DNA of 64,000 nucleotides from Methanobacteriota archaeon (GTDB lineage: Archaea > Thermoplasmatota > Poseidoniia > Poseidoniales > Poseidoniaceae), in assembly GCA_004195635.1 (NCBI GenBank), contig PSPT01000002.1:26200-90199 (forward strand), read 5' to 3'. Numbering within the stretch: the stretch's first letter is position 1; each line of letters begins with the position of its first letter. Below, one piece after another: positions 2,817-55,922 of this stretch. The notes under the pieces are model-generated. The model saw nothing but the letters and a program-made list of their open reading frames with translations, ran no database searches and was not told the DNA's origin. Position numbers and translations under genes: made by a program.

Positions 2817-2946
2817 GGCTTTCAAACTGCACAAAGGGTTCTATTTGATAAATAGACAGGCTCAATGGGATGTGGCTTTAGAATAATTTCGACTTTTTTC
2901 GCACCATATTGGCGCTGCTGAAAAAAGAGTGCTGAGTGGTTGTTGT

Positions 2947-3024
2947 TGGTACTCGATGCGGGATTCGAACCCGCGTTATCGGGATGAAAACCCGAGATGA
3001 TGGACCTGGCTACACTAATCGAGC
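2947..3024 (-). tRNA. tRNA-Glu (anticodon UUC), CCA encoded
   Basis: The reverse complement reads GCUCGAU...UCGGG-UUUUCAU-CCCGA...GCGGGUUCGAAUCCCGC-AUCGAGU-A-CCA. It has a 7-bp acceptor stem, a 5-bp anticodon stem with a 7-nt loop (U33, anticodon UUC, A37), a canonical T-arm GGUUCGAAUCC and a discriminator A. Confidence 0.8.
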
Positions 3025-3101
3025 AACAACCCTGCGCCGCGCTTTACATTGATGAAGGTTAGCCTCCTAGATTAGAGACAGGGGCCTCATTTTCTAAGCA
3101 A

Positions 3102-3885: not shown

Positions 3886-4374
3886 ATGGAGATACCAGAC
3901 ATCTTGGACACTTCGGCTTTGCTCGCTTGGCCGCCACAAAAATGGTTAGGTTGTTTCTGTGTTTTTGGTCAGATTGTTGAGATGGAACGCCATTCTCCAG
4001 AACGAGCGATGTTATTAGAAAATCAGGGTCCAGATTTTATCATCCCAGATCCAGCCTCAGTCAGCAAAGTTGAAGAAAACGCAGCATTGACTGGTGATTT
4101 ACCAAGACTTTCTCCTGTTGATGTTGAATTATTGGCTCTTACACAACAACTCAACGGAACTCTCCATACAGATGATTACCGAATGCAAAATGTCGCACGA
4201 AAAATGCAACTAAGTTGGAAGGCGGTTAGTGTCAAAGCGAGTAAAGCAGCCTGGTCGTGGATTCTTCTTTGTAGCGGCTGCAGGGCTGTGTCAAAGGTAG
4301 AAAGCAGTGATTCGGATAATATTCCAGAATGTGGAATCTGCGGAAGCCCACAAAAACTTAAGCGAAGTAAATAA
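3886..4374 (+). CDS. nob1: Nob1-like PIN-domain endonuclease with C-terminal zinc ribbon
   Basis: The N-terminal ILDTSALL PIN motif carries the first conserved Asp. The C-terminal CSGC-x17-CGIC forms a 4-Cys zinc ribbon. The ~160-aa size matches archaeal Nob1. Confidence 0.55.
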   Translation: MEIPDILDTSALLAWPPQKWLGCFCVFGQIVEMERHSPERAMLLENQGPDFIIPDPASVSKVEENAALTGDLPRLSPVDVELLALTQQLNGTLHTDDYRMQNVARKMQLSWKAVSVKASKAAWSWILLCSGCRAVSKVESSDSDNIPECGICGSPQKLKRSK

Positions 4375-4385
4375 TAATTACATTA

Positions 4386-4685
4386 TTATTCTTTCTTGGC
4401 ATCAATATCTTCCTTGATTTCGTCAGTATCTCGGCCCTCGGTTTCAATCCCCAACTTCTTCGCCTCTTCTGCAAGTGCAGCCTCTGGAGTCCTTCCTCCT
4501 GATTCAAGGTCTGCTTCAGTATTGTCGCTGCGTGGCATAGAGGTTATTTCCTTCATGCCCTCGGCAAATTCACCTTTTGACTGCCCGAGTGCGCGAGCAA
4601 CCTTTGGTAATCTTTCAGCACCAAAAAGCAAAAAGAAAATGAATAGAATAATTATCAGTTCACCCGACCCAAGTCCGCCTATCAT
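4386..4685 (-). CDS. tatA: Sec-independent translocase subunit TatA/E
   Basis: MIGGLGSGELIIILFIFFLLFGAERLPKVARALGQSKGEFAEG is the TatA TM-hinge-amphipathic signature. The second ATG is preferred because GGAGAT sits 4 nt upstream of it. An acidic C-terminal tail follows. Confidence 0.75.
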   Translation of the reverse strand: MIGGLGSGELIIILFIFFLLFGAERLPKVARALGQSKGEFAEGMKEITSMPRSDNTEADLESGGRTPEAALAEEAKKLGIETEGRDTDEIKEDIDAKKE

Positions 4686-9193: not shown

Positions 9194-12100
9194 GTGAACC
9201 TAGAAAATAAAAAAATGAACAAAACTACTGTTTGGAGCGGAGTCGGTGCAGCACTTTTCTTAGTGCTGCTAATGACATTAATGCCGATGAGCGGATTAGT
9301 TGAAAATACAAAGAACGCAATTGACTTCTCTGAGGAGTCGAACCTGTCAGAAGCAAAAGAAGACCCCTTTGCTTTGCCGCAGGAGCAGAACGAAAAAGCT
9401 AGTGTCAATGAACTAGACCCTGCCAAGGAATTATTGGGAATGCGTTCCCTTAATCAAAAGGCATACATTGGCGAAGATGGCGATATCGAGGTATTAACTT
9501 ACAGCGATCCAGTCCACTTCATTTCCGATGAGGGCACTTGGGAAGAAATTGATACAAATCTCGTATCCACCCCTGGTGGCTGGGAAGTTACTGATAATAT
9601 CTTTAAGACATACTTCAGTAATGATGTTGGCAATGGTGTTGCTGTTCAAGCGCACCCAAATGCCGACCCCGTAATTGTGGGTATTCAGCCCCAGATTGTT
9701 ACTCTTGACATTACAGGAACTGCACCGATGCCATATCGTGTTGCACCTGCACTTGAAGAGATAACAACTGGTGCAAACACAATTCGGTACCCACTGGCTG
9801 AAGGTTTCGATCTCGACTACCAAGTTGAGGGAACTCAAGTCAAGCAAAATCTCATTATTCGAGAGCAGCCAATCCTAGATGCAAATGCAGAATGGCTTGG
9901 ACTTTCAGAATTTGTGCAATTGCCTGTGGATTACGCCTTGTACATGGGTGAAGTTATGATTACCAGTGAAATGGTAATGACTCAGGAACCTCTTCAGGTT
10001 CGCCACATTGAAACTGGTGATCTTCTGGTTGAATTCCCTGAACCTATTGTATTTGATGTAAATAATCATGAAATGCATGGTGCTACATACTTCGTCTCGG
10101 CAAATGGTCCAATGATCAGTTTGACCACCGCAGTAGATAGTGACTGGTTGATGGAAGAAAACCGTAGTTATCCAATTCAACTTGATCCATCTGTACAAGT
10201 AAAGCAATCAAACGGTGGATACTGTTACGTTTACTATGGATACTGCTATAACAACTCATACAGTTATTTGTACCGTTACTATGGTAGTTTGTACTACCTG
10301 CCTTGGCATAAGTATTCCTTTACTGCTCAAAACTTTGGCAGTACTGCATACGCAACTAAGGTTGAGTGGAAGATGTATCGTCAATACTACTACTCCTATT
10401 CATCTAACCAGGCTGATACAACGTTACTTCAGACCTGTGGTGTGGACCAAAGGTACAATTATGGAGTAACATCTTCATCCTGTTCAGGAACAATCGCTTC
10501 TTCATTATTATCGGGATCAAATTCCAATTATAATGAACGTAAGTTAATTTCCTCAATTTGGAATAGTGCAACTACTGGAGGGACAATGCCTAGCGGAACT
10601 GGTTGGAAGACTGCAACTATTTGTAACTCTCAATCTACATGTTCAACTGGTGCAGGTTCAACAATTTTTAATGCAGCAAATAATGGTGGAACATTAGGTA
10701 TGGGTATGAAATACACAACCTCAACTTACTACTACACATATACCTACAACGCAGGTTCTTCAGCATCTTACTTCAAGGTGACTTACGGCGGAGCCTCTGA
10801 CACAACACCTCCTGCAGCGCTAGATTATGCAGCTTACACTGGCCTCACGTCATACAAAGAAGGCGCACGCACATTCTTCATCACCTTGAAGGACAACTCA
10901 GGAATTGACTCCACTTCTACCAACGGTCCAAAGTTGATGTACAGCATCAACAATGGAACCTACTCTAGTGCTAGTGCATCTTCAATCGGCACCTGCTCAA
11001 CATCAGTTTCAACCTGTAAATTCAAGGCTACAACTGCAGCACTAAGTGAAGACGACTATGTAAATTATTACTGGTCTTATCAGGATCTTAACGCAGGTGC
11101 AAATGGAGCAAACGCAGGAACTACCCCAAGTGGCGGAAGCACGTCTCCACACTGGTTCTATATTGGCAAGGTTGCCGATGCAGGTAATGCAAAGAAATTC
11201 CAAGTCTCGGTCACAGACCGCAGTGCTTACTCTTCATATCAGCCACAAAAGTACTTTGACCAACTAATGACCTATTATGACAGCAGTGACGAATTCGTGT
11301 TTGAATTTGACACTTCTGGATGCGGATCTGGTGCTCAAAGTTGTTTCTACACCACCAGTTATTACTTTTACCAAATGTGGACAATGCGCTGGACAACCAG
11401 CCCATCCAGCGGATACAATGGATTAGGCGGAACACTGTCCGGTAGTATGGATATGATGCAGGCCGATGGAGGTTATTTGTCAATATCTGCAGCCAATGGA
11501 CCCGGAATGAATCTCATATATTTCTATGATTCCTCCGCAAATAAGTGGGCAATGGTTGGACTAGATACTTCAACAGGAATTGATGAACCAATGTCTGGCG
11601 GAGACACACATTCTCCAAGATCAACTTACGGTTACACCAAAGCCTTCAACATTAAACTAGACAATATCTATGGTACAGTAGGTAAGTTTGACTTTAACGG
11701 TTCATACAGTTCAAGTCGCGCTAACTGGCTATGTCAAGGAACAAACGGATTCGTTTACTTCTTCCGCAGTACTTCTTCTAACCCAATTTGTACAAGTGGA
11801 TACTACTATGCATATTCAACATCATACAGGTGGACTGGATTTGCAATAGGTACTGGGTACTACGGTAGCCAAGCAACTACTGGTGCAACCTCATCTAAGG
11901 TGAGTAAAGTCGCACCAGAGCCAGATCGAAGCGGACCAAAGATGGACTTTACATCACTATTAGATAGCCACGCGCTTGAGCGAACAATATCTGTTGTTAT
12001 TGGCGACCAAGGTGAGCCACCAACTGGACTAAATATTTCTTCAACAAGTGAAATCGGGCCAACACTATACTATCGTTTATCGGGTGCCTCTTCATGGGAT

Positions 12101-15100
12101 TCAAAGAATTTGAATCCAGTTGGTGGAAATCGCAATGCATGTATTTTGAGTGCTTGTGAATGGACTGCTAAACTAGGCGGGACAGGAGCTGCTGCATTAA
12201 CACGTGGAGATACAATGGAATACAAAATATTCTCAAAAGACGTCAATTCAGACAGTGCTGGAGCTAACTCCAACACAAGTTCAGTCGTTTCTTTCGAAGT
12301 GGGCGATCCAAACAAGATGTTTGTAGTTGAATGGCACGATGTTGGATATCGTAATGATATCTATGAATGCACATATCAAGCAGTATTCTATGATGTTACT
12401 AACGAAATTGAATTCAAATATGATTCAAATTGTGAAGTATATTACGACTATGCTACAGTAGGTTATCAAGACCAAACTCGTACTAAGGGTGCTACATTAC
12501 GTGAACCTCTCGACTACATGGCAGGCGCCAACCCGCACAAGGTAAATTACCGAATTGGAACAGACGGTAGCAGCCACGGATCGGAAACATTTGACCTCGG
12601 TGCAATTGAAATCGTTAACTATCAAACAGCAATTACCGGTTCATCCAATGGATATCCATATGCATACTACTGCACTTCTTCCTATTACTACCAAACTTGG
12701 AAGGCAGGTTGTGACGCAAATATTGACATGCCTGATGGCTTCAACTTCGATTACTTTGGCACAACATACAATGGAAGCCAATCAAATAGTCGTGTGATGA
12801 TTAGCAGATTCGGTGGAATGTACTTCAAGAGTACTACCTCAACTGCTCCTGAAAGGGCAATGACTACATGGTATTCAAATATGCCAGACTTACCATACGC
12901 TTCGAGTACATTTTCAAGACCTGGACTAATTGCTCCATGGTGGGGATATTACAGTGCATACTATTGCTATGATTCCTCTAGCACAGATTGTAGTGTACGA
13001 TACCGAGTAATGCCGTTTGAAGGCAAGGGTACGGATATTACCTCTGATCTTCCGAACGGTGCTAATTGGGACTTAATTGACAGTCCAATTCGGATTAACC
13101 CAAGTAATGATTATCTTTCAATAGGTGGAGATGTAAATATTGAGCCTGGTGTAGTTATTCAAGTCGGAGCTGGCAAGGGAATTTCCTTTGATGGCAGTTG
13201 TGACAAATTTATAGCATCGGGTAATTCAACAGACCACATCCTCTTTGAGGGACAGAGTGGCGGAACATGGAAGGGACTTGCTTTCACAGCAGGTTGTACT
13301 ACCGGTACTGATGACCGACATTCCTTGGAATATGTTGACTTTGCAAACACAACTGATGCAGCAATTGCAGCAGGCAGTCGTCACGGAAGTTCACCAAGCA
13401 CAAACTCTAATGTTGGAAACTTCACAATGAACGAAGTAACATTCACCAATGTGGGTAGTGCAATAATGCATGGAAGTGGAGACGGTTCAGCCTTTGATAT
13501 CAGCAACTTTGCTGTTGATACCGCAAGCGGAAGTTGTTTCAATTTCCCAACTGACTCAGTAGTTTCTCTATACGAAGGTACTATGACTAACTGTAATACT
13601 GCAGGTGGAGCAAATGACGGTGCGGTAACAAGCGAAACTGGAACAGCAGGTTCATATTCAATTGAAAATGTATCTGTATCTGGTTCCCCAGTGAACCTCT
13701 TCGTGCTCAATGCACCAACAGTAATGTTGTCAAATGTTTCTGCTGGATCTTCATCAGCACAGAGTGGAATTGGAATTGCCCAGAGCAGAGCAACTGCAAC
13801 TGGAACAGAAACGTTCTATGCTTACAATGTTGATGCAAGTGGCTACAGTACTTCATATGTTTATGCAGATGATAGTTATTATCTTGAAGATGTGGATTTG
13901 GGCGATGGTGCATTAACTTTGCAACATTCCTCTTACACAATGCTTGGTCCAAGCGGAAGTGATGCAACTCTTGACAATGTTCAAGCAGGTGCCATCAATA
14001 TGTACAGGACTGCGCCAATGATGGATGATATTACTGCTACTGGAATGGTGATTAGTGGAGGAAGCCCAACAACCGATGGAATGTTGGGAGCTAATATTGA
14101 TTTGACCACTGGTGGATTTTTCGCATATGGGTGTGGATACTCATACACATTTACTGGTCTTGATGCTTTGAATATCAAGAGTTCTTGTTCAAGCAGCAAT
14201 GCGCCAAATACATTCGTAATTGATGGTGGTGCTTTGACGGGCAATAGTGGAGGCGATGCATTATATGCTCGTAACTCGAAGGTAACTGTCGGAGATGTCG
14301 CAATTACCGGTAGCCCAACAAATGTGGCTACTTCAAGTACGAATGGACAAGTCACTCTTGTTGAAGTCACTAACGGCGGAAACAGTTGCGCTGACTCAAG
14401 CGGATGGATTTCAACAAACTGTGCCCTCGACATTACTTCTTCAACTGGTAATATTTACCTTGGAGGACTAGCAGAAGTTGGAGTATTCAAGATGGTAAAT
14501 GTGAGTGGAACTTTAACAAAGATCTACAAACCAAACCACGTTGTAACTGCAGAACTTGTTGATGGTTCTGGCTCAACTATAACAACTGTCGGAAGACATG
14601 TTACTGATTCCACAGGATTTGTTGACGCATGGGTTCTAAACAACCAACTTTCTGGACTCAGTTTAACCTCAACATCCTATACCAATCACAATGTGTTTGC
14701 TTGGGGTGCCGCAGGAATGAATGAATCTTACGACATTACCTTTGGAATTGGCGACGCGATTGAATTGCGGCTTGAACCAGCACCAATTGACTTTGACCAA
14801 CCTAACATGGATTGTAACTGGCTAAAAAATAATGCAACAACTTCAGCATTTGACCCAGAAGGCGACGATACATATCTCTTTGATGAAACTCCAATGACTT
14901 TGTCAGCGGACCTAAACATTGATGGTTGTACCATTACTTTGATGGGTGCTTCATTGAAGATAAAGTCTGATGCTACAAACAGTCCTTCCCTAATTATCAG
15001 TAGTGGTGGAGTAGTGCAACTAAACATATCTTCAACAAATACAGTTGGTATGATAAAGGCCGTTTCTAGTTCTTACCCCATGCACATTGATATCCAAGAC

Positions 15101-18100
15101 GGTACTCTTTGGCTTGATGGTGGAGTCGTGCGAGATCACGCTCAATCAGCAACAACAGGTGCAGGATTGTATGTCGGAGAGGGTGCAACGCTCAAGATGA
15201 CAAACGCTGGTTCAGTTTACGGATTAGCAGCGACTTCCGATGCAATGGCAACTGTCAAGATTAATGGTGGAACACTTGAAGGTAATAGTGGAAACATCTT
15301 TAATACACAGCAAACTGGAACTGGTATTTGGTTCGAAGATGCTCAAACCGGAATGTCTAATCTTGGAGTTAGTGGTGCAGCAGTAGGTATTCAATCCTAT
15401 AATGCGGCCCCTCAACTCAATGGCTTTACTGTTACAAGCAGTACTGTAGGAGTGGATGTATACGGAGGAATGAGTTTACCAATGCTATATCGTTCAACTT
15501 CATTATCAGGCGAATCATCTGGTTGGAAGACATACTCACTGGATTTGGGTGCTTTCCTTTCAGAGGACTACGTACAAGTTGGATACAATAGCGTATTTGA
15601 AGGTGGAAATGCTCACCCATTGTACAATTATGCAACCTCAAAGTATTACATGATGACCGACAGAATGTGGGTTGAATTTGATCTTGATACTACCGGTGAC
15701 GGAGTTGCAGATTCTTCCTACAATCAATCTACACGAACTTCTGCAATGAGGAGTTCTGCAGGTTATTACGATGGAGCTAATGCAGGTTCAAGTGGTAGCG
15801 ATGATTATGCAGGATACAATTACTATGACTGCAATTTGTATGGCTACACTCAAAACCCAGCATACCGAGACTACGGATACTATTGGTATATGGCAAATCA
15901 AGGCTATAACGGTGGTAAGTACACAAGCAATGGTAATTACGACTATCCTGGATACTTCGGATATAGAATGGAAGCAAATGCTGACAGTTCAAGCAATTCT
16001 CTATACTATCCATATCACTACTGGGCATACTATTACACCTCCTATCATGGCGGCTGGGGCAAGAACATGCCTCCAGAGGGTTACAATGGAATGTGGAATA
16101 ATTACAACATCTGTATGGATTATGCATATACCTATTACTCAAGCCCAGGTGACGGTTTCAGAATAGCCATGCCAATTATTGACATGACAAACACTGGAGA
16201 TAGCGGTGTAAGTGGAGCAGTAACCGGCGCTATCGTCGGTGCAAGTCTAAACATAGACTTCTTCCACAACCGTGCTGACAATTACCAAGACCGTATTGAA
16301 ATTGTTGCTCGCTCAAGTAGCGATGTTACAAACATGGGTGACTGGATGCGTGAAGCAGGAACTCCTCTTCTCACCAATGGAAACATTACTGGTGCAGATG
16401 TAGGTGTCAGTATTGGCGGCAATTTCGCAGCAGCAAACTTTGAAAACCTTCTGATAACAGCACCAACATCAACAGGATTCGAGATGGATGGTTCAGCCTT
16501 TACAAATGTAGATGGCTTAACTGTCACCGGTGGAAATTACGGCGTACTTGTCGGATTAACATCTGGTGGAAGATTGGATGTCACTAATTCTGCATTGAGC
16601 AGTCAAGCGATTGCGGGAGTATCCTACCTCAAGGATATATCTGGATCCTTTGAAGGAACCATTACTGGAAGTGCTGGAGCAGCGATTGAATATGGTACTG
16701 CTACGTCGGAGACCCATGCTTATGACTCGTTGAGTCTCTCTGCGAATACAGTAGGTATGAGTCTCAACGGAAAAGGAACATTTGATTTCACCGATAGTAA
16801 CTTTGCTAATACAGAGGACTTCAATATTGGTGGTTCATCAATTGTGACTTTCGTAGATGGAACTGTAGATGAAACGACTGTAGCAGTTACTGGAACCGGA
16901 TTGTTCAAGAGAGCACGTTCGCTCGAAATAACATTGACTGCGGATGGCTCTAATATTGCAGGAACTAAAATAATGCTAATGGATTCAGAAGGTGCAGTAA
17001 CTGGCACAGCAACAACCGACTCAAGTGGAGTTGCAAGTGGAATCTTGTATAATACTGCATTAGTTGATTCGTCTGGAGCAACATGGCCTGTATTATCTGG
17101 CTATTCCGCCTCAGCCGCAGCAAAGGTAGAACATACTTCCACAGTTATGGATTACCGTTACAAGTCGCAAGCAGTTGCTCTAAGCAACACTACATCAAGT
17201 ACTGATATTATGGCTATGACAAGTTCTGATATGGTACTTCATCGTGTATGTTATGGCTATACTTCAACCTCGTACCAAATGCTTGGCAGTTGTAGCTCAG
17301 GTCTCGGAACTGGAAGTACCAAGACCTACTCCAACGGAGCAAAGGAGTATGGATACTATGGCGCTACGCCGAAGGACATGTCTGGAAAGACCATTATGGT
17401 TGACGTACCATTCATGTATATTGGTTCAGATTCAAGTGGTTCCACAAAGAATACTTGGAATGATTCCACAATTATTGTAACCGGTTCTTACACCTATTAT
17501 AATAATCAACGCTGGACATCTACCTCTCCATACAACTCGCATCTTTACATGAACAATACTACTGTTATCTCTTTGTCTGAATATGATGGCACACAAACTG
17601 GAATCCACCTCGGATATTATGCTTGGTCGGATATCAATCCATGGGTAACAAACAGTACTATCGTCGGATTAAGCAGTATTGCTGCCGGTCGAGAAAATTC
17701 GAACTGGGATCCAGATCACTTCGTGGTTGAGGATAACATACTAATTCGTGGAATGGGTGGGCCTGGAGCGGCGAAGACTTCCTTCTTCTATGAAGAAATG
17801 TGTATCGTAAACAGTGGTATTCATGAAGCTTCTATCAAGGGCAACACAATTTCTGGATGCCCTGTGGGAATCATGATGAGAAATATTGTTTACTCATATG
17901 GGTTCTCTTCAAGTGTATGGGGACCAGATGACTCTGTAATCTCCGGCAACGACTTCGAAGACACAGGTAGCCTTTCGATATGGTTCTACTTCTCCTACGG
18001 AGACGATGTAGAAGTATCAGGAAATACCTTTAGCGGTAGCACTGTACCTCATTACCATGTATATGGTCAGAGTACATCTACAACTGGTCTAATAGTTGAT

Positions 18101-21100
18101 GGTAATACATTCACATCAGGAGCCAATCCAATTTATCTACGAGGAACTCAAAATTTCGATGTTAAGAATAATATTATTGCTGGTGACAAAAACGACGCTC
18201 ACCCAGGTATTTACACATTGAATGGATATGGTTCAATTACCGACAACACTCTCGTTGACTCTGACGGCGGTATCATGATTGATGGTATCCGTTCAGGACA
18301 ATCATTGAGCGTAACTGGTAACTCAATATCCACAAGTAGTGGACGAACTGCACCAAGTGCAATTGGAATTTGGGCTGAAGACTGTGGCGCATCAACTCTA
18401 ACGACTGGAAACAACGACATTTCAACTGTAATGAATGCAATGGTCGTTGACGGATGTGACGTTGATGATACAGGTTCAGATCTACGTGGTACCGGAGGAG
18501 CAGGTAGCAACTCATGGTCTGTTGATGTCATGGCCTCCTACTACGACCCACAGAATCTAACGATTAGCGAAGGCGACACAGTTCGATGGAGAGCCAAAGA
18601 GTATTACAACGGTGCTACACATACTGTAACAAGTAACGATACTTCATCTGGTTCACCTCTGTTTGAGACTTCCGGTACTGGTATGAATTTGGGAAGTACA
18701 TTCTCATACACTTTCACTACTGCTGGAACATATGAGTATCATTGTGCTAATCACCAATTCATGTATGGTAAAATCATAGTAACTTCGGGTAGTAGCTCAA
18801 GCTTTACCTCTGTTGGACTAAATGTAGTAGGCAATAACGATGATATTTCACTTGATGGAACAAGTGTTAGTGGATTCACAGTTGCTCACAGCCAAAGTGG
18901 TGGTAGTCTAGACTTAACCGGAGATGCTTCTCTAATAGGAGACACTTATGCGGTTGAACTCAGCAATGTTGATGTGACCTCTGACGGAGCATTCGTCAAG
19001 GCTAACGAAACAGTAGGTGTAGGATTATACCTCGCAAATGGTGGAAGTATTGACTTAACCAACCTCAGCACAAAGGCAGGATACGGTGTTTACACCGATG
19101 GAACTGACTTCCGCTGGAATGGTGGAAATGCAGAAGGTGGAACTGCACTATATGTAATCGGTGGCGCAGAGGGTAGTGTTGAAAATCTTACCTTCGTAGC
19201 ATCCTCACGCAATGGTGGAGCAGTAACAACTCAAATCAATGCAGGACCATATTCAGTAATTACCTCTGTTGGTAACACTCTTGACCCAGGATCATTGATT
19301 TTGGATATAACTGCTGTTATCCATGAGGCTAACTTACTAACATTTGACTCGGACAGAAATGAAGACTACGACCCAAGCACTGCTGCAACACCCGCAGCTG
19401 ACCTTGGAATGATGATTAAGTCAACCGATGGTGCAAAGGCAGCATATGTCAGCCCATCCTTCCGTACTAACTTCATAACACCTAACGGCGACATGAGTGA
19501 TTGGTTAGGTAACCCACTCAATCCATCTGATGATGCTATGCCTGGTGTAATGTCTGGCGATGGTACAAATGATATGCTAGTAACATGGGATTCTCAGAAT
19601 CTCTATGTGGCTGTAACCGGCGAAGACATGGCATCTGGTGACCTGTTCATCTATATTGACAGCACAAATGGCGGTTCAACGACCACCGCAGATTGGTATG
19701 GTGTACACAACCTACCATTCGGTGCCGACCACGTCCTATGGGCTGAAGATGGTTCAGATGCACCAAATGACGGTGACTCAACAAACACATGGGGTCTAAA
19801 GTCCTACAACATCGCAACTTCAACATTCAATGAGAATTCTGCAAGTTGTACTGCAATGAGCGCAACAATTGGTGACAGCACAGATTCAGACACCGAGTTT
19901 AAGATACCATGGTCCTGTATTGGCTCACCTGCTGATACTGTCCGATTAATGGGAATTGTTCAAGATGAAACTTCTGTTGACATCCAAACAATCCACCCAT
20001 CTCAGACAATCACCGGTAGTGGAACTGAAACATTGGTAACACCAATTGAGGTTACATTAAACCAAGGTGACCTTGGAGACGGTTCTCTAACAGATTATCA
20101 GTTGATTTACCGCAGTTTCGTTGGAAGCAGCACACCAACAGATCCTAAGGAATACGATGTAATGGTCCTTGCTGACGCACCATGTGCTGAAGATTGGGGA
20201 ACAATTTCTGATATCAACATGAGCACCAATGTTGCAGAATCTCTAACCATTGAGCGAGCATGTCCATTCATTGCTTCGCCAAGTTTCGTTACCGTCACAA
20301 CAACCGGCAACAATCTAACAGGAACTGGCTACATGGTAGGATTCGAAGACATGCCAATGCAAATAATTCCATTGACTGGATATGGTATAGACATGCAAAC
20401 CACCGCTGTTAACATGGGCTGGCAAATTACAGACCATCCAAGCACAGCAATGGCTCCAACTACATTGTTGAGTTACAACCAATGGGGTGTAACGGGAATG
20501 ACTATTCCTGTAGACCTTGATGGTGATGGAGTTACTGACTGGGATATGCCAATTGGAGATGACCACCTCGTAAATCTATCTGTTAATGCAAATCAATTCG
20601 GATACTACACAGTATTCCTAACATTGACTGATGAACATGGATTAACTGATGTCGGTATTCTAACCGTTATCATTCTACCAATCAACGACGCACCAATTAT
20701 TTGGAACACTGGTCGTACAGATGGACTCCCTGTATTCGTATCTGATGCTGCAGGTAATGCAAACGTAGCTGATGAAGGATTCGGTTCTCTGACCATCCCA
20801 CTCGGCAGTGCTGCAAACACACCTGGTAGTTTCGTAATGGATCAAGCAAATGAGCAGCCTCAAGTTTATACATGGGGCGCAAGCGTACCTGCTTCCTGTT
20901 CTGCAATCTCAGTAGATGTAACCAACAATGTACTGGTTATTACTGAGAATCAAGCAAATGAACTTGGAGGAGAGTGTGCAATTACCATGACTCTAAGCGA
21001 TGACGGAACTGATGCATTCCCAATTAGTTATATCCACCCACTACTCGGTGTGGACATCTATGGTTGGACCTTCAACGATGCGTACCCAGTACCGGTTACC

Positions 21101-22834
21101 TTCCGCGTTAACCCAGTCAACGATGCTCCTGAAGTATTAGACTATGACCACCAAAGTGGACAGGTAATTACTGCAGGTAATGGAACAAGTGTGGCTCTAC
21201 CATGGCGTCTAATCGTCATGGAAGACGATATGTCTACAGACAACCTAACCTTTGACCTTTCAGCAATGAAGGACGATAACGACCACTTGGATAGCGAACT
21301 AACTTGGGAATTCGTGAGTACCAGCAATTGTGTTTGGCAGAACTACTTCTCTGACATCAGCATTACAGGTGATGACATTGCGTTCACACTAATACCTGAC
21401 GCAACAACAACTGCACCTCCTGAAGAAATCGATTATCTTGATGACGGTGGAATACACCAAACTCGCCCAACAGGTGGAGATTACTGTGTAATCCGTATGT
21501 ATCTAAACGATACTGCAATCGCACCTGCTCACACACCTAACTACGGTTATGATACTGCAACATACACACAACAAGGCGATGAAGTACTCTTGTACATTCA
21601 GGTAAAGAATATTCCTGAGCCAGTACCTGATTACTACTTTGATGTAATTTCTGGATTTGACTTCCACGGCGTACAAAATATCATGCCTGGTTCTGAAATT
21701 CCGGTCTCAGTTGATCTTGTGCACGAAGGAGATGTCCCACCATACAAGTACGACCACCTACTCAAGGTTGAATTCTGGTCCAACGGCCACACCACTGGTG
21801 ATGAAGTTCAAGACATTCAGTTCATTGAACCACCAGCAATGGGAGAAACTATTGAAGTATTCAGCGACGATGTAATGATCGAATCTGGAACAACAGCAGT
21901 TTATGTCCGTGTTGACGTAATGACCTGTGTAAACAGTGTCTGTCCAGCACCAGCAGATGTAACTCCATCTGACTTCATTGCTGACTCACCACCGGCACAC
22001 CGCTGTGACAATCAACTAACAGTCGCTTGGTCATGTCCTGGTAAGCACGCAGGAACATCCCTACGTCGTCCATTCTTGGAAGACAGCAACTTCAGCAACA
22101 ATATCATGTATACAAGTAATGCCCAAGCCGGTACTCTTGATGCAAATGATGACTTGCCAAAGCGTGTAAGCCTAATCGGCGCATCTGCTGTACCTTCCTT
22201 TGCTCCAAGCATTGTAATGGTCAGTATTGTTGGAATGTTCGTCGGTGCTCTTGCAGCATCCGGACGCCGTGATGAAGAGGAAGATGTTGAGGAAATTGAA
22301 GATGATGAATCTGCAGTCAGCCCAGTTATTGCTACTATCTTGATGGTTGCTATTACAGTTGTATTGTCTGGTGTCATTTATGTGTGGGCTAGTGATTTAG
22401 CTAACACTGATGCCAAGACTGTACCTCGTATTGGTATGAAGGTCGTTGAACACGAACCCGATGTAAGTACTGGATACTGGACTCTTGAAGTCACCTCAGC
22501 AAAGACCGAGTTGGCTACACAAGCGGTAATCATCCAAGTTACTTGGGATGGCGGTTTCTATGAAACCAGCCTAGCAAACCAGACAACCTACGGATTCGTA
22601 ATATCTAACGTACCAGGCGATGTCGCAGCACCAATTACTGTGACCTTTGCTGACAACGTAGACTGTGATGACCTAGGTGAAAACTGTAAATCAACCTTCG
22701 GTGTTGGAGACTTTATCGTCATCGGATCTCACGATTCAAATGGCGACAAAATCCTAAATGTTGACGTAACCGTTCGCTACTCACCTGGAATAGGCAGTGC
22801 ATCTGTCCTCCAAGAGTTCCGTGGACTTGTCTGA
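9194..22834 (+). CDS. Giant (4546 aa) multi-domain cell-surface adhesin-like protein
   Basis: A single uninterrupted ORF starts at GTG, with GAGGTGA 5 nt upstream and an alternative ATG at 9215. Features in order: N-terminal signal/TM; Tyr-rich low-complexity segments; parallel beta-helix (PbH1/NosD-like) repeats; a type-1 copper cupredoxin motif (H...[11 protein letters not shown]); a CBM9-like segment; cadherin-like INDAPI/VNDAPEV repeats; a C-terminal TM ([19 protein letters not shown]) with acidic tail; and a pilin-like module. Confidence 0.85.
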   Translation: [4546 protein letters not shown]

Positions 22835-26661: not shown

Positions 26662-28254
26662 TCATTCGCCAATATTCAATTGGCTTCCAATGCCCATTGT
26701 AGCATGCCCCTCGGAGTGAAGGCTACCAATTTCAGTCATGAGTATTCCTCCAACTGGGATAAATAATACCTCTGAGTATTGATGCTTCAAATCCTCAATT
26801 TCAGTTTGCTTGGTTGCCCAATCCTTTTTCCAGTGAAATAGTTTGACTGCTTTTGCTCCTTGATTTATTGCTTGTTCAGTTTGAGAAATATTTGCAACTC
26901 CTGGTATTGCTAACATGTTGTGTTGCTTGGCGATATTTACCATGTCTTTGGGGTTATTGGGGGCAAGGGCAAATGTAGCACCGCATTTTTGAGCCATAGG
27001 GATTTGAGTTTCGGGTTGTGAAATAGTGCCGACTCCAATAAGTATCCTTGGGGGAAGAGTGGACCGAATAGCAGCAATGGTCTCGAAGGGCTTGTCCGAA
27101 TCAAGGGTCACTTCAATTGCTTTGCAGCCTTCAGCGACTAGTTGAATTGCTAATTCCACCGCTTTGACTGGTTCATGTTTGCGAAGTATTGCAATCACCC
27201 CTGAGAGTGGATTTAGCGGTTTGTGGATGGTATTAGAGGATGAGCGGTTTAGCGAGGTGTGGCTTTGGCCCATAATTGTGAGAGTGCGCAAAGTAGCCTC
27301 TGCAACTCCTTCTTCAAGTGCGATGTCGGTAATGGTAGAGAAGTCTCCAATTCCCGCCTGAACCATAGCAGCATACTTGTCAGCCCTTCTAAGAATCTGC
27401 TCCTCATCAAATCCTTGGAGCATCCCGTCCAACCATGCGCCTACCCACGCATCACCTCCACCGAGAGGGTCAATCAAAGGTGAGGAACTCGGATTTTTAA
27501 TAGTTGAAACTGATTTATATTGCTGAAAAACAGAGGACATGGTTGACCACCTACTGCGAATGCCATTTTCGTCCGTTTTGTGACTGCAGGTTACCCATGT
27601 GAGCCCAAATTTCCTTCGAACTTCAGAAACTGCGTTTTCAATTTGGTCTGCTGGAGTTTCAATCAAATCGTTTTCATACATTTTTTCTAAGTCCGTTGTC
27701 GAAAGGTGAAGGGCGTGAATTTGGCGAAGTTTTGGCTCAATAATTGCCCACAGTTCCTCCCATTCACCTAGGGCTGGACGGTGGTTAATGTCAAGGCTGA
27801 TTAGAAAACCATCTAATTCAGCCCAACCCATCGCAGTAGCCCATAATGACTTGGGTTTTTCTCCAAGCAAAGGGGTGATGCCACTGAGGTGCAACCATCT
27901 AACTCCGTCAAATATTGGACGCAATAATTCGGGAAAATGTTGTGGAGTGAGGTGGGCAAAGGCTGAGTTCTTCCTTTGGTAAATTGGAGATTTACTATCC
28001 TCGGTTATTCGATATTTACCTGTTGGGTAGGGGAGGGTTTTGACATGACTTAGATCAACTCCCGCCGAGAGAGCATCCCGGCGGATACGCTTTGCAGCGG
28101 GGTCATCGCCAAGTGCCGAAATCCAACTGACTTTTCGCCCAAGCATTGCTAAACTTACCGCGGTGTTCAGTTCTGAACCTCCGGGTGTCGTAATGCTTCC
28201 AAGTCCACCCGATGCCTGTCTAAGCATCGCTTCCCCGAGGCAGATTACTTCCAC
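26662..28254 (-). CDS. Bifunctional 2-keto-3-deoxygluconate kinase (PfkB family) / KDPG aldolase (Eda) fusion
   Basis: The N-terminal half has PfkB motifs (VICLGEAM, GGSELNTAVSLAMLG, DPLGGGDAWVGAW). The C-terminal ~200 aa match Eda along their length (IEVTL, IGVGTI, GATFALAP, IPGV, AVKLFH with the Schiff-base Lys context). Confidence 0.7.
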   Translation of the reverse strand: MEVICLGEAMLRQASGGLGSITTPGGSELNTAVSLAMLGRKVSWISALGDDPAAKRIRRDALSAGVDLSHVKTLPYPTGKYRITEDSKSPIYQRKNSAFAHLTPQHFPELLRPIFDGVRWLHLSGITPLLGEKPKSLWATAMGWAELDGFLISLDINHRPALGEWEELWAIIEPKLRQIHALHLSTTDLEKMYENDLIETPADQIENAVSEVRRKFGLTWVTCSHKTDENGIRSRWSTMSSVFQQYKSVSTIKNPSSSPLIDPLGGGDAWVGAWLDGMLQGFDEEQILRRADKYAAMVQAGIGDFSTITDIALEEGVAEATLRTLTIMGQSHTSLNRSSSNTIHKPLNPLSGVIAILRKHEPVKAVELAIQLVAEGCKAIEVTLDSDKPFETIAAIRSTLPPRILIGVGTISQPETQIPMAQKCGATFALAPNNPKDMVNIAKQHNMLAIPGVANISQTEQAINQGAKAVKLFHWKKDWATKQTEIEDLKHQYSEVLFIPVGGILMTEIGSLHSEGHATMGIGSQLNIGE

Positions 28255-35300: not shown

Positions 35301-38153
35301 GTGGGAATACTTGCGGTTATTGTGGAGAGGGGAGTTAATAATTCAGTGCCTCACCGGCACTTTATCATACAAGCAATAGTGATTTGCAGTATCTTACTGG
35401 CTGTAGTCTCGCCACTTGTGGCTACAGCAGAAGAAGCCGAGTCGCCAATCTTTTCGCAAGTGAGTGAATCTGAAAATCATACGGTTGGCTGGATAAAAGA
35501 TGGACAGGGTTACTCGTCAGGTGATTTATTTTACCCCTCGGCCAATGGCTCTGGTGATTGGTCCGATATGGCCGCAAATGGCTCACCCTTCCCTGTTCTA
35601 TTTTTCTTCGTTGATGATGAAGAAACGCTGGATAATTATGATTGGATTTCACAAACTATTGCCTCTGCAGGATATATTGTATGCGTCTTGAAAGATGATT
35701 GGGATCCTTCTGATTATCCACAAATAATGTTTGATATGAATGAGACTTTGAATATTTTTTCTGAGCGATATAATAATTATTCAGAATCCGAGGGCTTGCC
35801 TACAGGTTTTAAAGATGGTTTTGATTTAGATCATTGGGGCGTTTCTGGGCATGGAAAGGGGGCTGCAAATGCCTTAGTTGTAAACGGAAATTGGAATAAC
35901 GATTGGCAAGGCTCAAACGAGACTCTCACTCATGCCCCACCTCGAGCATTATTCGGGCTTGGTTTGGACAAGAGTGATTTAGAGACCTTCATGTATCAAT
36001 TTGCATCTCCACCAAATCCCCAATTCGCTATGTTTTTCACTGGAACTGTTGATGAAATAGCACCGCCAAATCAACACATTATACCGGTGCTTGAGGATTG
36101 GCCGGGCGCTTGGCATTTGCAAGAAGTTCTAGGTGCAAATCACTTGCAATACCAAGATGAAAACTCGTGGTTGGCAGGTTTTTCTGATGGCACTCCGGCG
36201 ATTTCTCGTTCAGAGCAACAAGGTGAAGCACTTGCGCATATTATTCCATATTTGGATTTGATACTCAAGGGAGATCATGACTCATGGATTGAGGCAACGA
36301 GTCGCGAGACAGATTTCGACATGCCTTCAGACAATGAAGCCTATATTTCTGAAATTTTGGATTCGGCCCATCTTCTATTCACAACTAGCCTTTCTCCGGC
36401 AAATCAAGTTCTTGAATTAGGTCAAACTGGATTACTCTACATGGATGTCATGCATCGTAATGGCGAATTACTTTTGCCGGATGACTCCGGTTTAGCAATT
36501 ACTTGTTTTATTATTGGAAGCGAATTGGAATTTAGTGGAAGTCTTGATTGGGCAAATGCAAATGCTAGTTGTACAATGAATTTGGATGAGTTGCCACCAG
36601 GGTATTATCAAGTTGGAATGAAGATCACACATAACGGAATGCCTGCTACACAATATGCAAATATTGTACGGAATAATACTCCCTTAGTTGCGGTAAATCC
36701 CACCCCTTACATTTCTCTTGACCAACATTCTTCTGTGGTGGTAAACTCCTCTGCCTTTGCCTATGATCCAGATGGACAGGATGTATATTTCAGTAATGCT
36801 TCATGGGTAGGTAACCTTGGAGATGAAATGTCAATTATCTTGAATGGACAAAATATGACTATTTTACATACTGGTGAGCCGGAGTTTTCGGGAACTATTC
36901 TCATTTCATTGACTTTCGTAGAAACCGGCACCGTTGACCCAGCCTACCTAAACATTACAACACATGTCAGCATATTACCTGTAGACGATCAAGTTCAAGT
37001 TTTAGATCAAATACCTCGGCAAGAATTTGACGAGGATAGCACAGGCTTGACTCTCAATTTAGGCCAATGGTTTGCCGACCCAGAGGGAGGTCCCATCATG
37101 GGAAGTGTGATTAGTAGCGATGAGGGTTTGAGCGCAATTGTTGTGGGTGATGAACTTCGCATGACATCAAGTGCAGACTGGAATGGTGCTGCTATTATTA
37201 GCCTCTCTATTTCTGACGGAAGTACAAATCCGGTTTTCCAAGAGGTGCCAATTGTGGTCAATCCTGTTGATGATGAGCCACGTTACAATGCATCCGCATG
37301 GAACATTTCTGTTGATGAAGACTCAACAGTTGAAGTAGACCTACGCACCCTTGCCTTTGACCCCGATGGCAATGATTTGAATTATTCTTGGTTAGGTGAA
37401 GTTGCAGGGTGGTCAGTAATAATTGATGGTCTAGAAATGACAATAATTCCTCCCCCGCAAATCAATGGTGATTTCAATATTGGCTTGCTCAATGCTTCCG
37501 ACGGGGTCTTTGCAATTGCTGCAAACCTTACAATTATCGTGAATCCTATTGCCGACCAACCTCAAGTTAGTTGGCAGGGGAATGAGGTATTGAGTGAAAT
37601 GTTAATCGTTCATTATTCCTTCTTTGATGAAGATTTTCCCGAAACACACCAAGTTCAAGCAAGCCTTGATTCGGGAGCATGGACTCAATTAGAGCCACTT
37701 TGTACGGGAGAGCCGTTTGGAGTTTTGCAATGTCAAGTAGTTTGGAATACTTCGGCTTTGATGGATGGCAGCCATAGTATTTCATTGGTTGTAAAGGACG
37801 GATCCTTTACCACAGACTCGCAGCAATTTGTATTCATTACGGGGGTTGAAGAAGTAAGTGAAGATGAGAATGAAGCCCTTGCCGCAATAATTTCCAACCC
37901 TATAGTTTGGGGCAGTTTTGTTGCACTGTTTTTCGTTGCAATTATTTTGCGCGGAGGAAATCCATTCGGTGGAGGTGCTGATTTGGCTCAGGCAGAACAA
38001 ACTCCACTAGCAGCATCCCCGAGACAAGCAGAAGATGTGTTGAAGGAAGTCGAGGTCGCCAATACCGGTTCAGAGAGTTCTGAAAATGCTCGCTCGAATA
38101 CCGCAAAGGGCACAGGTGGCTTACTCGATAAGGCTAATAGATTAAACAAGTGA
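35301..38153 (+). CDS. Secreted/surface protein (950 aa): signal peptide, N-terminal globular domain, cadherin-like repeats, C-terminal TM anchor
   Basis: GTG start. The signal h-region is IVICSILLAVVSPLVATA. VNPVDDEPRY and IVNPIADQPQV are cadherin-like repeat ends. The C-terminal TM is PIVWGSFVALFFVAIIL, followed by a tail. Confidence 0.7.
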   Translation: MGILAVIVERGVNNSVPHRHFIIQAIVICSILLAVVSPLVATAEEAESPIFSQVSESENHTVGWIKDGQGYSSGDLFYPSANGSGDWSDMAANGSPFPVLFFFVDDEETLDNYDWISQTIASAGYIVCVLKDDWDPSDYPQIMFDMNETLNIFSERYNNYSESEGLPTGFKDGFDLDHWGVSGHGKGAANALVVNGNWNNDWQGSNETLTHAPPRALFGLGLDKSDLETFMYQFASPPNPQFAMFFTGTVDEIAPPNQHIIPVLEDWPGAWHLQEVLGANHLQYQDENSWLAGFSDGTPAISRSEQQGEALAHIIPYLDLILKGDHDSWIEATSRETDFDMPSDNEAYISEILDSAHLLFTTSLSPANQVLELGQTGLLYMDVMHRNGELLLPDDSGLAITCFIIGSELEFSGSLDWANANASCTMNLDELPPGYYQVGMKITHNGMPATQYANIVRNNTPLVAVNPTPYISLDQHSSVVVNSSAFAYDPDGQDVYFSNASWVGNLGDEMSIILNGQNMTILHTGEPEFSGTILISLTFVETGTVDPAYLNITTHVSILPVDDQVQVLDQIPRQEFDEDSTGLTLNLGQWFADPEGGPIMGSVISSDEGLSAIVVGDELRMTSSADWNGAAIISLSISDGSTNPVFQEVPIVVNPVDDEPRYNASAWNISVDEDSTVEVDLRTLAFDPDGNDLNYSWLGEVAGWSVIIDGLEMTIIPPPQINGDFNIGLLNASDGVFAIAANLTIIVNPIADQPQVSWQGNEVLSEMLIVHYSFFDEDFPETHQVQASLDSGAWTQLEPLCTGEPFGVLQCQVVWNTSALMDGSHSISLVVKDGSFTTDSQQFVFITGVEEVSEDENEALAAIISNPIVWGSFVALFFVAIILRGGNPFGGGADLAQAEQTPLAASPRQAEDVLKEVEVANTGSESSENARSNTAKGTGGLLDKANRLNK

Positions 38154-41411: not shown

Positions 41412-41540
41412 TGCCGGGAGCGGGGCTTGAACCCGCGACCTTCGGATGTCTCAGACATCATCTTGGCTGACTTTTCAGCGCGACTCGTGCAAAATTGCTG
41501 CCCTATGAGTCCGACGCGCCACCAACTACGCCACCCCGGC
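41412..41540 (-). tRNA. tRNA with anticodon CAU (elongator Met or Ile2) containing a 56-nt intron at 37/38
   Basis: The exons are GCCGGGG-UG-GCGU-AGUUGGUG-GCGC-G-UCGGA-CUCAUA and A-UCCGA-AGGUC-GCGGG-UUCAAGC-CCCGC-UCCCGGC-A. All four stems pair. G1-C72 excludes an initiator tRNA. CCA is not encoded. Confidence 0.7.
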
Positions 41541-44068: not shown

Positions 44069-47000
44069 GTGCTTATGTCAGCCGCGCCAATTACCTTAGA
44101 TTCTCGCTTCAAAACTCTATTATTTATAGCCATGTTTTTGTTTGCCGACATTGCTATTCCTGCTTTTTTTCCGGCTGAAGAATTGGAAGAAATAAATGAA
44201 AGATCATTCGCCGTTTACAATTACGGTGCGAGTAAAGATGCAATGATTGATAGTTCTGCTGCCAATAATAACTTTGGCACCTCAACGACAGCATCTATTG
44301 GCCCTAATGCAATTATAGGCGAATCAAGAATGCTCATAGATTTTAACATTAATTTATCCTCAAGTGCAAATATTTCAAGTGCAGTATTAGATTTGACTTG
44401 CAGTACAAATGCTACTGTAACTGGCACAACATTTTTTGTCGCAACTTTAAGCCAAGCATTTCAAGAAAATTCTACAAACTGGTTGAATGCAGATAATACA
44501 ACGGGATGGGATATGCCCGGTGCTGATGGAGATGCAGATAGAGGTGCGTGGGAACCACCTCATGAGGAAAATGCAAATGGCACTTTTTCACTCAATGTTA
44601 CGACCTTCGTTCAAAGCGCAGCAGCTGCCAACTCAACGACTCTTGGTTTCGTGATTTCGGCAATTGGGGCACAGTATTCATGCAGCACCAAAGAAACACT
44701 AAATCCTTCTGCAAGCCCAACGTTATTGGTCACTTGGGGTGCAGGTACGCCTTCTGCAAAGGGTCAATTAACTTCTAATTTTGTGACTGATGGAAATGCA
44801 CTAATGTCCTCTGATTTCATGTTAAATGCAGAATTAGACCCTACCTTTAGTTGGATGAATATGCAAGGCAGTCAAGTTGAATTCCAATTGTCTTATGAAC
44901 CTTCATTTAAATCTGATATTGATAGTTATTGGTATTTAAATTCCAATCTTAATAGCACTTTTCAAATGTCTTCAAGCAGCGGCTCTGTTAATATCCCTAG
45001 CGAAAATGCCTTCATTAATGGTTCGTCCTATTTCTATCGTCTACGTGCTGTAAACGGTGATCAAGTTGGCGATTGGGAAACCGGATATTTCCATTCACCT
45101 GACCTTTCTGTAAGCGATAATGGCGATGGAACTGCAACAATATTGTTCAACTCAAATAGTATGGGATTAATTACCGATGCAATTGAGGACACAAGTTTGG
45201 ATGAAAGTAATAATGGAGGTAATACCGCACTGGGGAGCCAAACTGCAATTGTTACAGGGATGTCTTTGCCAACTACCGACCAATATGGGTTGTTGCGATT
45301 TAATGCCAATACTTTTGGAATGCATCAAAATGCAACCATTGAAATGGCAGAGTTAGTCATGACTCGCTCTTCATACAATAGTGCGGCAATAGTTTCTCTT
45401 CATCAGATGGATGAAAATGCAAATTGGACCGAGGAAAGTGCAACATTCAATACTCCTAATGGAGTTGGGACTTGGAATGATGGTGGTCGAGATTTGACCT
45501 CATCAGCAATAGACTCTCTTTGGCTAAATCAAACAAGTAGTGAATTCCGCTTTGACATTACTTCATCTTACCAACATTGGTTGGATGATGGAGTCAATGG
45601 TGATTTATCATATTGGACAACTGTGCGTGGAATAGATGAATCACATTCTGCAAATACCAATATTCAATGGCATTCAACTGACTATACTACCTCTAGTGAT
45701 CAACCTTTATTGGAGATAACATACTCTTGGGGTAGTGGGGCTTCACCTTACCCAGTAAACCAACTCACCCCTATTGATGGAAGTGGGGCTTGGACAATGA
45801 CTGGTTTTAACCTAAGTGGAAATACGACACCTTCTCTAACTTGGGACGGAACAAATTCTTCAACAAATTCCTATGACATTATTTTCCAACTTTCAAGTGA
45901 CCGTGATTTCCGCAATATCATTGCTGAGGTCGACACCTCATCTAATAACGACTTCGCAGCGAGTGATGGAATCTTCAATTTGTCTGCTCCCCATGGTCTT
46001 GTGACTGGTGGCATTTACGGCTGGAGGATGGCTCACATGGGTTCAGATGGGCATGCCTCCGAGTGGACAGAATCAAACTTCTTTGTCCCAGGGATTAATT
46101 CAACATATCTTGGAAATGACCTTTATGAATTGCGTTTCAAACAAGGCAACTCGTCTTCATTCCTTAATCAACCTGCTTGCCGCGACTCCTATATTGATAG
46201 CGGTAGCCCAACAGATAATTATGGGGGGGAAATGGAAATTCAGACTTCCTACAATTCTTTCTCACAGGCCAATATTCTTTGGGGTTGTGATCTTTCAGGG
46301 CATATGTTGCCAAATGGTATAGCAGTTACTGATGCTTCACTTTCAATGGCATTATCATATGCTGGGTCTTCTCCGAGTGTTGGCGCTTGGGAAAACTTGC
46401 AACATAATTGGACTGAAAATGAAGTTACTTGGAACACCTATGATGGAACAAATAATTGGGGTGTTGGAGGTGCATCAGGTTGGGAGCGAGGTAGTTTATT
46501 GGATTCTACAACTATTCCTACAAGTTCTTCCACAGGTACAACATTTGAATGGAATATCACCCAAGGTGTTCAAAGTTCAATGCGAGGGAATGGGCAAGTG
46601 GATGTGATTCTAACTGTTCTAAATACTGGCAGTAATCCCGATGCTCTTCTATACTCAAATGAAGCCAGTGGTGCATACCTTCCAGAATTGGTTATAATTT
46701 TCACCCCAGGTTCTAATTCAATACCAGCTAATCCTGTTTTGGTTTCACCTGCTAATGCGTCGTGGGCGGTCGAAAGTGGCATTGAACCTGCTCCCATATT
46801 GCGACCCGAATTGTCTTGGTCAATGACCAGTAACGTCTCAATTACCGGCTGGGTTGTTGAATTAGATACTCTTTCTTCTTTCAATGGCCCTAATTTGCAA
46901 ACCTTTGCATCTTGGAATTCACTTGGGTTTGACATGCAAAATCAAACTTTCACGACAAATCAAGATTTGGCTAATGGTAAAGTGTGGAATTGGCGAGTAA

Positions 47001-53089: not shown

Positions 53090-53175
53090 GAAAGGAAAAT
53101 TTCTTCAAATGATATAATTTCCATATTAAATTGTTGGCGTTGGTTTCTTGAGGGCCACCCTTCCTGCCTTGTCCG

Positions 53176-55914: not shown

Positions 55915-55922
55915 GTGATTGA

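Follow-up and report, generated by a model that had tools for sequence, protein, structure and literature searches.

Amicyanin of Paracoccus denitrificans and P. versutus (PDB 1aac, 1id2) is a free periplasmic carrier of 106 residues, dedicated to methylamine dehydrogenase, whose His/Cys/His/Met copper site includes the shortest natural ligand loop, C-x2-H-x2-M. Halocyanin and the membrane-tethered blue copper carriers of archaea are type-1 cupredoxins outside the membrane, small and tethered close to it. In the cupredoxin-copper enzyme fusions, among them the Nitrosopumilus multicopper oxidase 9cck and the NirK 6hbe, a single type-1 domain is built into a larger protein and relays electrons there, next to an evident catalytic partner domain. 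Plant phytocyanins (uclacyanin, stellacyanin) are type-1 cupredoxins in cell-surface glycoproteins, for which partners have been proposed only recently, if at all; in their ligand-less early-nodulin-like relatives, the fold has outlasted the copper ligands. Here we describe a cupredoxin domain inside a predicted surface protein of 4,546 residues from an archaeon of the family Poseidoniaceae (Marine Group II). The window that we analyzed is a stretch of 64,000 nucleotides from contig PSPT01000002.1 of assembly GCA_004195635.1 (positions 26,200 to 90,199, forward strand). In the window's list of open reading frames (ORFs), the host gene is a single very long ORF at 9194..22834 (+).

The domain resembles each of the described systems and departs from each of them. 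It shares with amicyanin its ligands, its loop and about 33% of its residues, but is internal to a giant archaeal surface protein rather than a free carrier. Like the halocyanins, whose genes Marine Group II is known to transcribe (PMC9723583), it would be an archaeal type-1 cupredoxin outside the membrane; unlike them, it is separated from the nearest anchor by about 1,150 residues. The copper enzyme fusions are among its top fold and sequence matches and provide a precedent for a relay of this kind, whereas no catalytic partner is detectable in the giant protein by Pfam, NCBIfam or PDB profiles. Phytocyanins, which are eukaryotic, small and anchored by glycosylphosphatidylinositol, are related to it by fold only.

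The cupredoxin domain and its candidate copper ligands

An initial annotation of the window, made by reading the sequence, had proposed a complete type-1 copper site within the giant ORF. The peptide that it quoted is indeed present, as residues 3109-3197, encoded at 18518..18784 (+). The coordinates that it gave, 18520-18785, pointed to the right region, but they are 1-2 nucleotides off and out of frame, and their literal translation gives stop codons.

Profile searches agree on the nature of this segment. PF00127 (plastocyanin/azurin family) matched a 109-residue piece with 40.5 bits, against a gathering cut-off of 21.2 (E 3.9e-10), and the whole giant protein with 33.1 bits in a single stretch; it was above threshold in all eight sequences of alignment A1. 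When phmmer was run against the PDB, amicyanin was the best solved match (E 3.5e-11), followed by a Nitrosopumilus blue copper protein, a Nitrosopumilus multicopper oxidase with a C-terminal cupredoxin, and plastocyanins. A family profile of 36 orthologs gave E about 1e-11 against the PDB, and with a whole-protein profile amicyanin and plastocyanin were the sole PDB families matched in the region of the domain. The fold was also modeled with AlphaFold2, using the window sequence and seven orthologous fragments as input. The model has eight strands, with a predicted local distance difference test (pLDDT) score of about 80 over the domain, and its flanks are disordered, with low pLDDT. Foldseek matched this model to plastocyanin, amicyanin and Nitrosopumilus cupredoxins with a probability of 1.00 and target-normalized TM-scores of 0.7-0.79, consistent with an eight-stranded Greek-key beta-sandwich. 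The initial annotation had allowed that such searches might assign the segment to a different fold; profile and fold searches alike assign it to the cupredoxins. Judged by its profile matches and its predicted structure, the segment is a genuine type-1 (blue copper) cupredoxin domain of the amicyanin/plastocyanin kind.

Its place within that kind is less specific. The amicyanin family of NCBIfam (TIGR02657, an equivalog) was rejected, with 43.2 bits against a cut-off of 110.2, as was the plastocyanin family (TIGR02656), with 37.2 bits against 87.85. Halocyanin (TIGR03102) was rejected both by score (34.4 bits against 93.8) and because the domain is internal to a 4,546-residue protein and is not a small membrane-tethered one. 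By these sequence scores, the domain is a generic PF00127 member, nearest to amicyanin but outside the amicyanin, plastocyanin and halocyanin families. The initial annotation had likened its ligand spacing to that of plastocyanin/halocyanin-like blue-copper proteins; the closest relatives are of the amicyanin type, with an identical C-x2-H-x2-M loop.

The proposed ligand set is complete: His3143, Cys3184, His3187 and Met3190 all align with the ligands of amicyanin. His3143 (18620..18622, +), the first ligand, is the equivalent of amicyanin His53 in the family-profile alignment; a pairwise phmmer alignment had placed it opposite His56, and this assignment was replaced. The other three ligands lie in the loop Cys3184-Ala-Asn-His3187-Gln-Phe-Met3190 (18743..18763, +), with codons at 18743-45, 18752-54 and 18761-63, and correspond to Cys92, His95 and Met98. 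The loop has the length of that in amicyanin, and the preceding Y-x-Y-H-C context is also common to the two proteins. The spacing between the first His and the Cys, put at about 45 residues by the initial annotation, is in fact 41. C-x2-H-x2-M occurs once in the giant protein. The bare motif appeared in 2% of 20,000 composition-preserving shuffles; requiring a His 30-55 residues upstream as well lowered this to 0.6%. Because this makes the motif only modestly improbable, the case rests on the profile and fold evidence.

Conservation of the ligands was surveyed in orthologous genome loci together with 46 metagenome loci, which yielded 61 distinct orthologous segments. The first His is kept in all 61, with no replacement. 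Cys is kept in 58 and replaced by Asp in three, the second His is kept in 59 (Glu in one, Ala in one), and Met is kept in 58 and replaced by Ile in three. All four ligands are found together in 58 of the 61 segments, in sequences that are about 50-60% identical overall, and the conservation in orthologs on which the original proposal had been made to depend is thus borne out. At the level of single ligands, retention in 58-61 of 61 contrasts with an overall identity of about 50%.

There are exceptions. Three segments read His, Asp, His, Ile (L027:10001-10516), His, Asp, Glu, Ile (L091:72-557) and His, Asp, Ala, Ile (L093:601-1086), and P0141, another ortholog, which is partial and was recovered in the exhaustive search, reads His, Asp, His, Met, with Cys lost and Met kept. 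The codon change from Cys to Asp, TGT to GAT, takes two substitutions. An alignment of about 570 residues was tested with 100 neighbor-joining bootstraps. In none of them did L027 group exclusively with L091/L093, and a shared single origin of their Asp was rejected on this ground; P0141 lies in a different deep branch from the other Asp variants. We conclude that Cys has been replaced at least three separate times, always by Asp. Such uniformity suggests that a carboxylate ligand was selected for, and speaks against random decay. The exceptions also show that the fold can persist without a type-1 site. Two of the variant ligand sets have counterparts among the engineered azurins C112D and C112D/M121L/F/I, the 'type zero' copper of Lancaster et al. 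(2009) as cited in PMC11966278: P0141 has the ligand set of C112D, and L027, in which Cys-to-Asp is accompanied by Met-to-Ile, has that of the 'type zero' azurin C112D/M121I. The azurin sites are laboratory mutants, whereas the variants described here are natural. The source of L027 is a metagenome-assembled genome (MAG) from an oxygen-minimum zone (ETNP1_MAG_24).

The giant gene and the surroundings of the domain

A protein identical over all 4,546 residues is found in NCBI assembly GCA_015660415.1 (contig DQKZ01000051.1), in Logan SRR3577362 and in three JGI metagenomes. Among GTDB species representatives, scanned at one genome per species, 22 orthologous loci were present in Poseidoniales/Poseidoniaceae MAGs. 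The giant ORF is intact, at 4,600-4,740 residues, wherever the contig permits; at least 13 orthologs are full length, and orthologs are about 50% identical to the window protein over their whole length. The same order of genes is found again at orthologous loci: the giant gene, HAD hydrolase, CinA and the PolD small subunit. The intact ORFs, the whole-length identity and the recurring gene order imply that this is a conserved chromosomal gene, neither an island gene nor an assembly chimera. A chimera is also ruled out by the same in-frame arrangement in independent assemblies, at the 22 genome loci and the 46 metagenome loci. The giant gene is a conserved, single-copy chromosomal core gene of the Poseidoniaceae, present in at least 22 species.

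The choice of query affected what could be recovered. With the domain alone, the word-indexed search returned only small free cupredoxins and no orthologs, whereas a 600-residue query around the domain recovered orthologs, including fragments 49-64% identical in Poseidoniaceae and in TARA samples. Public annotation already assigns PF00127 to the window protein, and fragments of orthologs bear the name 'plastocyanin/azurin family copper-binding protein'. In a full-text literature search we found no paper that discusses the giant protein, nor is it mentioned in the main papers on Marine Group II genomes. One 409-residue fragment (P0021), 60% identical to the archaeal giant protein, is labeled 'Pseudomonadales bacterium' in NCBI; its contig is most likely mis-binned.

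A hydropathy scan of the giant protein revealed hydrophobic segments at residues 11-37, 4332-4358 and 4372-4403. The first (9224..9304, +; Kyte-Doolittle scan), conserved in orthologs, is a predicted signal peptide or signal anchor. The second (22187..22267, +) is a predicted transmembrane helix, after which comes an acidic loop, RDEEEDVEEIEDDES. Because these two segments bracket them, residues 38-4331, including the cupredoxin, are predicted to lie outside the cell. An abundance of Ser, Gly, Thr, Asn and Asp, together with 37 N-x-S/T sequons, fits an archaeal surface glycoprotein. The label 'adhesin' is an inference from the size, predicted topology and composition of the protein.

Directly upstream of the domain, at residues ~2872-3090 (17807..18463, +), lie eight x-[ILV]-x-G/D-N-x-[ILF] motifs at a spacing of 21-35 residues, the signature of PbH1 parallel beta-helix coils. 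The domain had been described as lying between beta-helix arrays. The spacing of the upstream repeats fits this description, but no beta-helix profile reached threshold: TIGR03804 (para_beta_helix) gave 13.4 bits on the window protein against a cut-off of 19.45, and PF13229 had no match in the window protein or in orthologous fragments. One orthologous fragment is named 'parallel beta-helix repeat protein' by JGI. The domain itself is set off by two linkers with low pLDDT, the Gly/Ser-rich GTGGAGSNSW on its N-terminal side (residues 3099-3108; 18488..18517, +) and the Ser-rich SGSSSS on its C-terminal side (residues 3198-3203; 18785..18802, +). Beyond the second linker is another repeat-like, beta-rich segment of loose periodicity (residues 3204-3400; 18803..19393, +), which had no match when it was searched as Pfam pieces or when a full-length profile of 13 orthologs was compared with the PDB. 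Next comes what was initially called a 'CBM-like unit', after the carbohydrate-binding modules (residues 3400-3720; 19391..20353, +). The sole support for this name is a weak match to CBM9_1 (CBM9, PF06452) in 2 of the 13 orthologs (best E 0.018); the window copy has no match. A profile of the unit found no match in the PDB, and its AlphaFold2 model, with pLDDT 35, is unusable.

Elsewhere in the protein, few modules could be recognized. Ten overlapping 520-residue pieces, searched with Pfam and NCBIfam, returned the cupredoxin, the N terminus of a pilin, sub-threshold noise and nothing else, and the full-length profile of 13 orthologs, compared with all PDB sequences, matched only cupredoxins, archaeal pilins and, weakly, cadherin. 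The most conserved block, residues 1000-1460 (12191-13573), has a mean column identity of 79% and contains many invariant Trp, Tyr, Cys and His residues, such as H1376, H1397 and H1426. It gave a weak Pfam match to NIDO (nidogen-like) in 3 of the 13 orthologs, and its profile found no match in the PDB. This block could be the functional core of the giant protein.

A redox or copper-binding domain in a giant extracellular protein had been called unusual, which overstates the case, since secreted proteins of 2,500-3,700 residues with 9-12 cupredoxin domains exist. At E <= 1e-3, the exhaustive search returned 11,549 representative proteins, among which those with 3-12 cupredoxin copies dominated the top ranks. 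By Pfam, P0061 (3,670 residues) has 12 PF00127 domains and P0132 (2,938 residues) has nine, both together with PKD domains; phmmer found eight cupredoxin stretches in P0098 (2,532 residues), and one protein of 1,452 residues has nine. Such multi-cupredoxin proteins, secreted or anchored (P0061, P0132, P0098, P0028, P0029), have complete ligand sets and are 33-39% identical to the domain described here. They differ in that their 5-12 copies alternate with other units or spacers, whereas the giant-protein family has one copy in a non-repetitive context. The distinctive feature is thus a single cupredoxin copy in a non-repetitive archaeal protein of some 4.5 thousand residues, an architecture that is undescribed. 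As an observation in its own right, public metagenomes hold secreted proteins of 960-3,670 residues with 5-12 cupredoxin domains, all with complete ligand sets; in P0028, nine halocyanin-like repeats follow a twin-arginine lipoprotein-type N terminus.

Possible roles of the copper site

The most likely explanation, to which we give an even chance, is that the domain is an exposed, redox-active, one-electron copper centre outside the cell. It would be inserted as a self-contained module, through its short Gly/Ser linkers, between two beta-solenoid-like stretches of a membrane-anchored protein, and the predicted site would bind Cu and cycle between Cu(II) and Cu(I) as a one-electron relay. In cupredoxins with the topology of plastocyanin and amicyanin, both chain ends are at the pole opposite the copper, and an inserted domain should therefore present its copper end outward. 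In the orientation that this suggests, the copper end, with the exposed His3187, would face outward from the host rod, where a partner could reach it. The partner could be a small halocyanin-type carrier, a redox substrate that is secreted or bound to particles, or an unrecognized domain of the giant protein itself. Because the fold persists in a few lineages in which Cys has been replaced, it would also serve as a spacer in the rod. Two indirect arguments favor a working redox site over a purely structural one: the outward copper end that the chain topology suggests, and the axial Met. From azurin and laccase variants it is established that an axial ligand acts mainly on the potential, and that copper is bound and the protein folds without it. 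Met3190 is nevertheless as conserved as Cys in our survey (58 of 61) and is lost only where Cys is also lost.

Several observations weigh against a redox centre. A partner was sought without success: phmmer found no second cupredoxin elsewhere in the window, there is no CxxCH heme motif in the 13 full-length orthologs, and Pfam, NCBIfam and PDB profiles revealed no catalytic or cofactor-binding domain over the whole protein. The conserved neighbors, HAD hydrolase, CinA and PolD small subunit, are housekeeping genes, with no redox gene among them. The distance of about 1,150 residues between the domain and the membrane anchor is, if the protein is extended, probably too great for direct exchange with respiratory complexes, and one copper site in 4,546 residues also speaks against a respiratory role. 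Conservation of the domain (0.56, against a protein mean of 0.50) is about average. The loss of Cys in at least three lineages that keep the fold implies that the copper site is dispensable in some of them. Finally, the positions equivalent to the hydrophobic docking patch near the exposed His of amicyanin are mostly Pro, Trp/Phe, Met and Val/Ile, which counts in favor of the redox reading, but they vary among lineages. With regard to the amicyanin system itself, no methylamine dehydrogenase (mau) genes were present among the scanned window neighbors.

Many of these points would be expected under the main rival explanation, which we consider doubtful but serious: that copper or another metal merely rigidifies a spacer module in a long surface fiber, as Ca2+ rigidifies RTX adhesins, and that no electrons are transferred. 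The presence of just one copy in a protein in which no search detected an enzymatic domain, the failure to find a redox partner in the window, the orthologs or the neighbors, the survival of the fold after Cys loss and the near-average conservation are all consistent with a structural site. Such a site does not readily account for the retention in 58 of 61 segments of the complete type-1 set, including a weakly bonding axial Met, nor for a loop that matches that of amicyanin, a dedicated electron carrier. Type-1 copper geometry is tuned for electron transfer, and by analogy with characterized sites stability would not need an axial Met, although this reasoning is indirect.

A role in copper handling seems unlikely. 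The exposed site might capture, buffer or sense copper, either supplying the copper oxidase and halocyanins or guarding against toxicity. The predicted extracellular position of the domain is compatible with this, as is the transcription of halocyanin and plastocyanin by Poseidoniales (PMC9723583). The repeated Cys-to-Asp replacement could be accommodated too, since it would shift metal preference and not abolish binding; C112D azurins still bind Cu, favoring Cu(II) (PMC8915257). However, one site per 4,546 residues would make a poor buffer, there are no His- or Met-rich motifs near the domain, and no copper transporter or chaperone was found among the scanned window neighbors. In addition, type-1 sites grip copper tightly and, to our knowledge, are not known as transfer sites.

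We give still less credence to a metal-free, cupredoxin-like spacer or binding domain in which the ligand pattern is a functionless relic. Cys has been lost in three or four lineages, one pair of which also lacks the second His, as might be expected of a relic; but a relic would have decayed, and 58 of the 61 distinct sequences retain all four ligands despite an overall identity of about 50-60%. An artefact, whether a chance motif (0.6-2% of shuffles) or a chimeric assembly joining a small cupredoxin gene to a large ORF, has next to no chance of being the explanation, given profile E-values of about 1e-10 and the same in-frame arrangement across independent assemblies at 22 genome and 46 metagenome loci.

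The pilin module and the wider window

The giant ORF ends in a predicted archaeal type IV pilin module, AVSPVIATILMVAITVVLSGVIYVWA and about 140 further residues (22313..22831, +). Its N-terminal helix was recognized by PF07790 (34.2 bits, cut-off 25.2) and TIGR02537 (43.2 bits, cut-off 20), and the PDB pilins 8gi2, 9myg and 8fj5 align with the module, pre-cleavage residues included. The pre-cleavage motif, DDESA directly before VSPVIATILMVAITV, matches those of solved haloarchaeal pilins; in 8fj5 the corresponding sequence is DDSAVSPVIG. From A4374 to A4399, 26 consecutive positions are invariant in the 13 orthologs, against about 50% identity overall. The C-terminal order (22187-22831, residues 4332-4546) is therefore transmembrane helix, acidic loop, complete pilin module.

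At 17 of the 22 genome loci the ORF runs through to its 3' end, and in all of these orthologs the module is in frame. Internal start codons are not conserved. In all complete orthologs, 4,373 residues precede the pilin helix in one ORF, so that the usual arrangement of a short N-terminal class III signal peptide is absent. In some MAGs, NCBI annotates the last 199 residues as a separate 'type IV pilin' (P0182). A pilin behind an extracellular 'leader' of 4,373 residues appears to be an undescribed arrangement, and the module may be a more surprising feature of the giant gene than the cupredoxin.

The redox reading of the copper site can be taken further, into a proposal that we regard as improbable. 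An outward-facing copper centre on a surface fiber of some 4.5 thousand residues, made as the giant 'leader' of a type IV pilin, might act together with a CBM9/DOMON-like unit in redox reactions outside the cell, with particles, metals or reactive oxygen species as their targets, and the Asp variants would then be natural type-2 or 'type zero' counterparts. The CBM9/DOMON-like unit lies about 220 residues downstream of the copper centre and has an invariant Met and an invariant His.

The window is rich in large surface proteins. A second giant ORF, of 3,006 residues with five CBM96 modules, is followed by ORFs of 912 residues (Big_2) and 836 residues, together spanning 44069-58433, and an ORF of 950 residues at 35301-38153 has Big_9/cadherin-like domains. 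The archaeal context is apparent from genes for the PolD small subunit and a pelota/aRF1-like protein and from a tRNA with a presumed intron. This tRNA, 129 nucleotides at 41412-41540 (-), was detected by Rfam with 52 bits and missed by ARAGORN; it presumably contains an intron, which fits an archaeal genome. On the same strand, an ORF of 530 residues (26662-28254) combines PfkB sugar kinase and KDPG/KHG aldolase domains and would fuse two steps of a (semi-phosphorylative) Entner-Doudoroff route.

Next to nothing is known of the cell surface of Marine Group II archaea, which are uncultured and highly abundant; the Poseidoniaceae are among the most abundant archaea of the surface ocean. The giant protein provides them with a conserved, very large surface component, in which a blue-copper domain and a pilin are the sole recognizable globular modules. 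If the copper site is only structural, the scaffold is unusual but the domain within it is an ordinary one. For the engineered azurin sites of bioinorganic chemists, the Cys-to-Asp variants that have arisen repeatedly in nature provide a ready comparison. A redox-active site, on the other hand, would give the first indication that Marine Group II carries out electron chemistry outside the cell, and the domain, at about 90 residues, would be a small and easily expressed handle for testing such chemistry.

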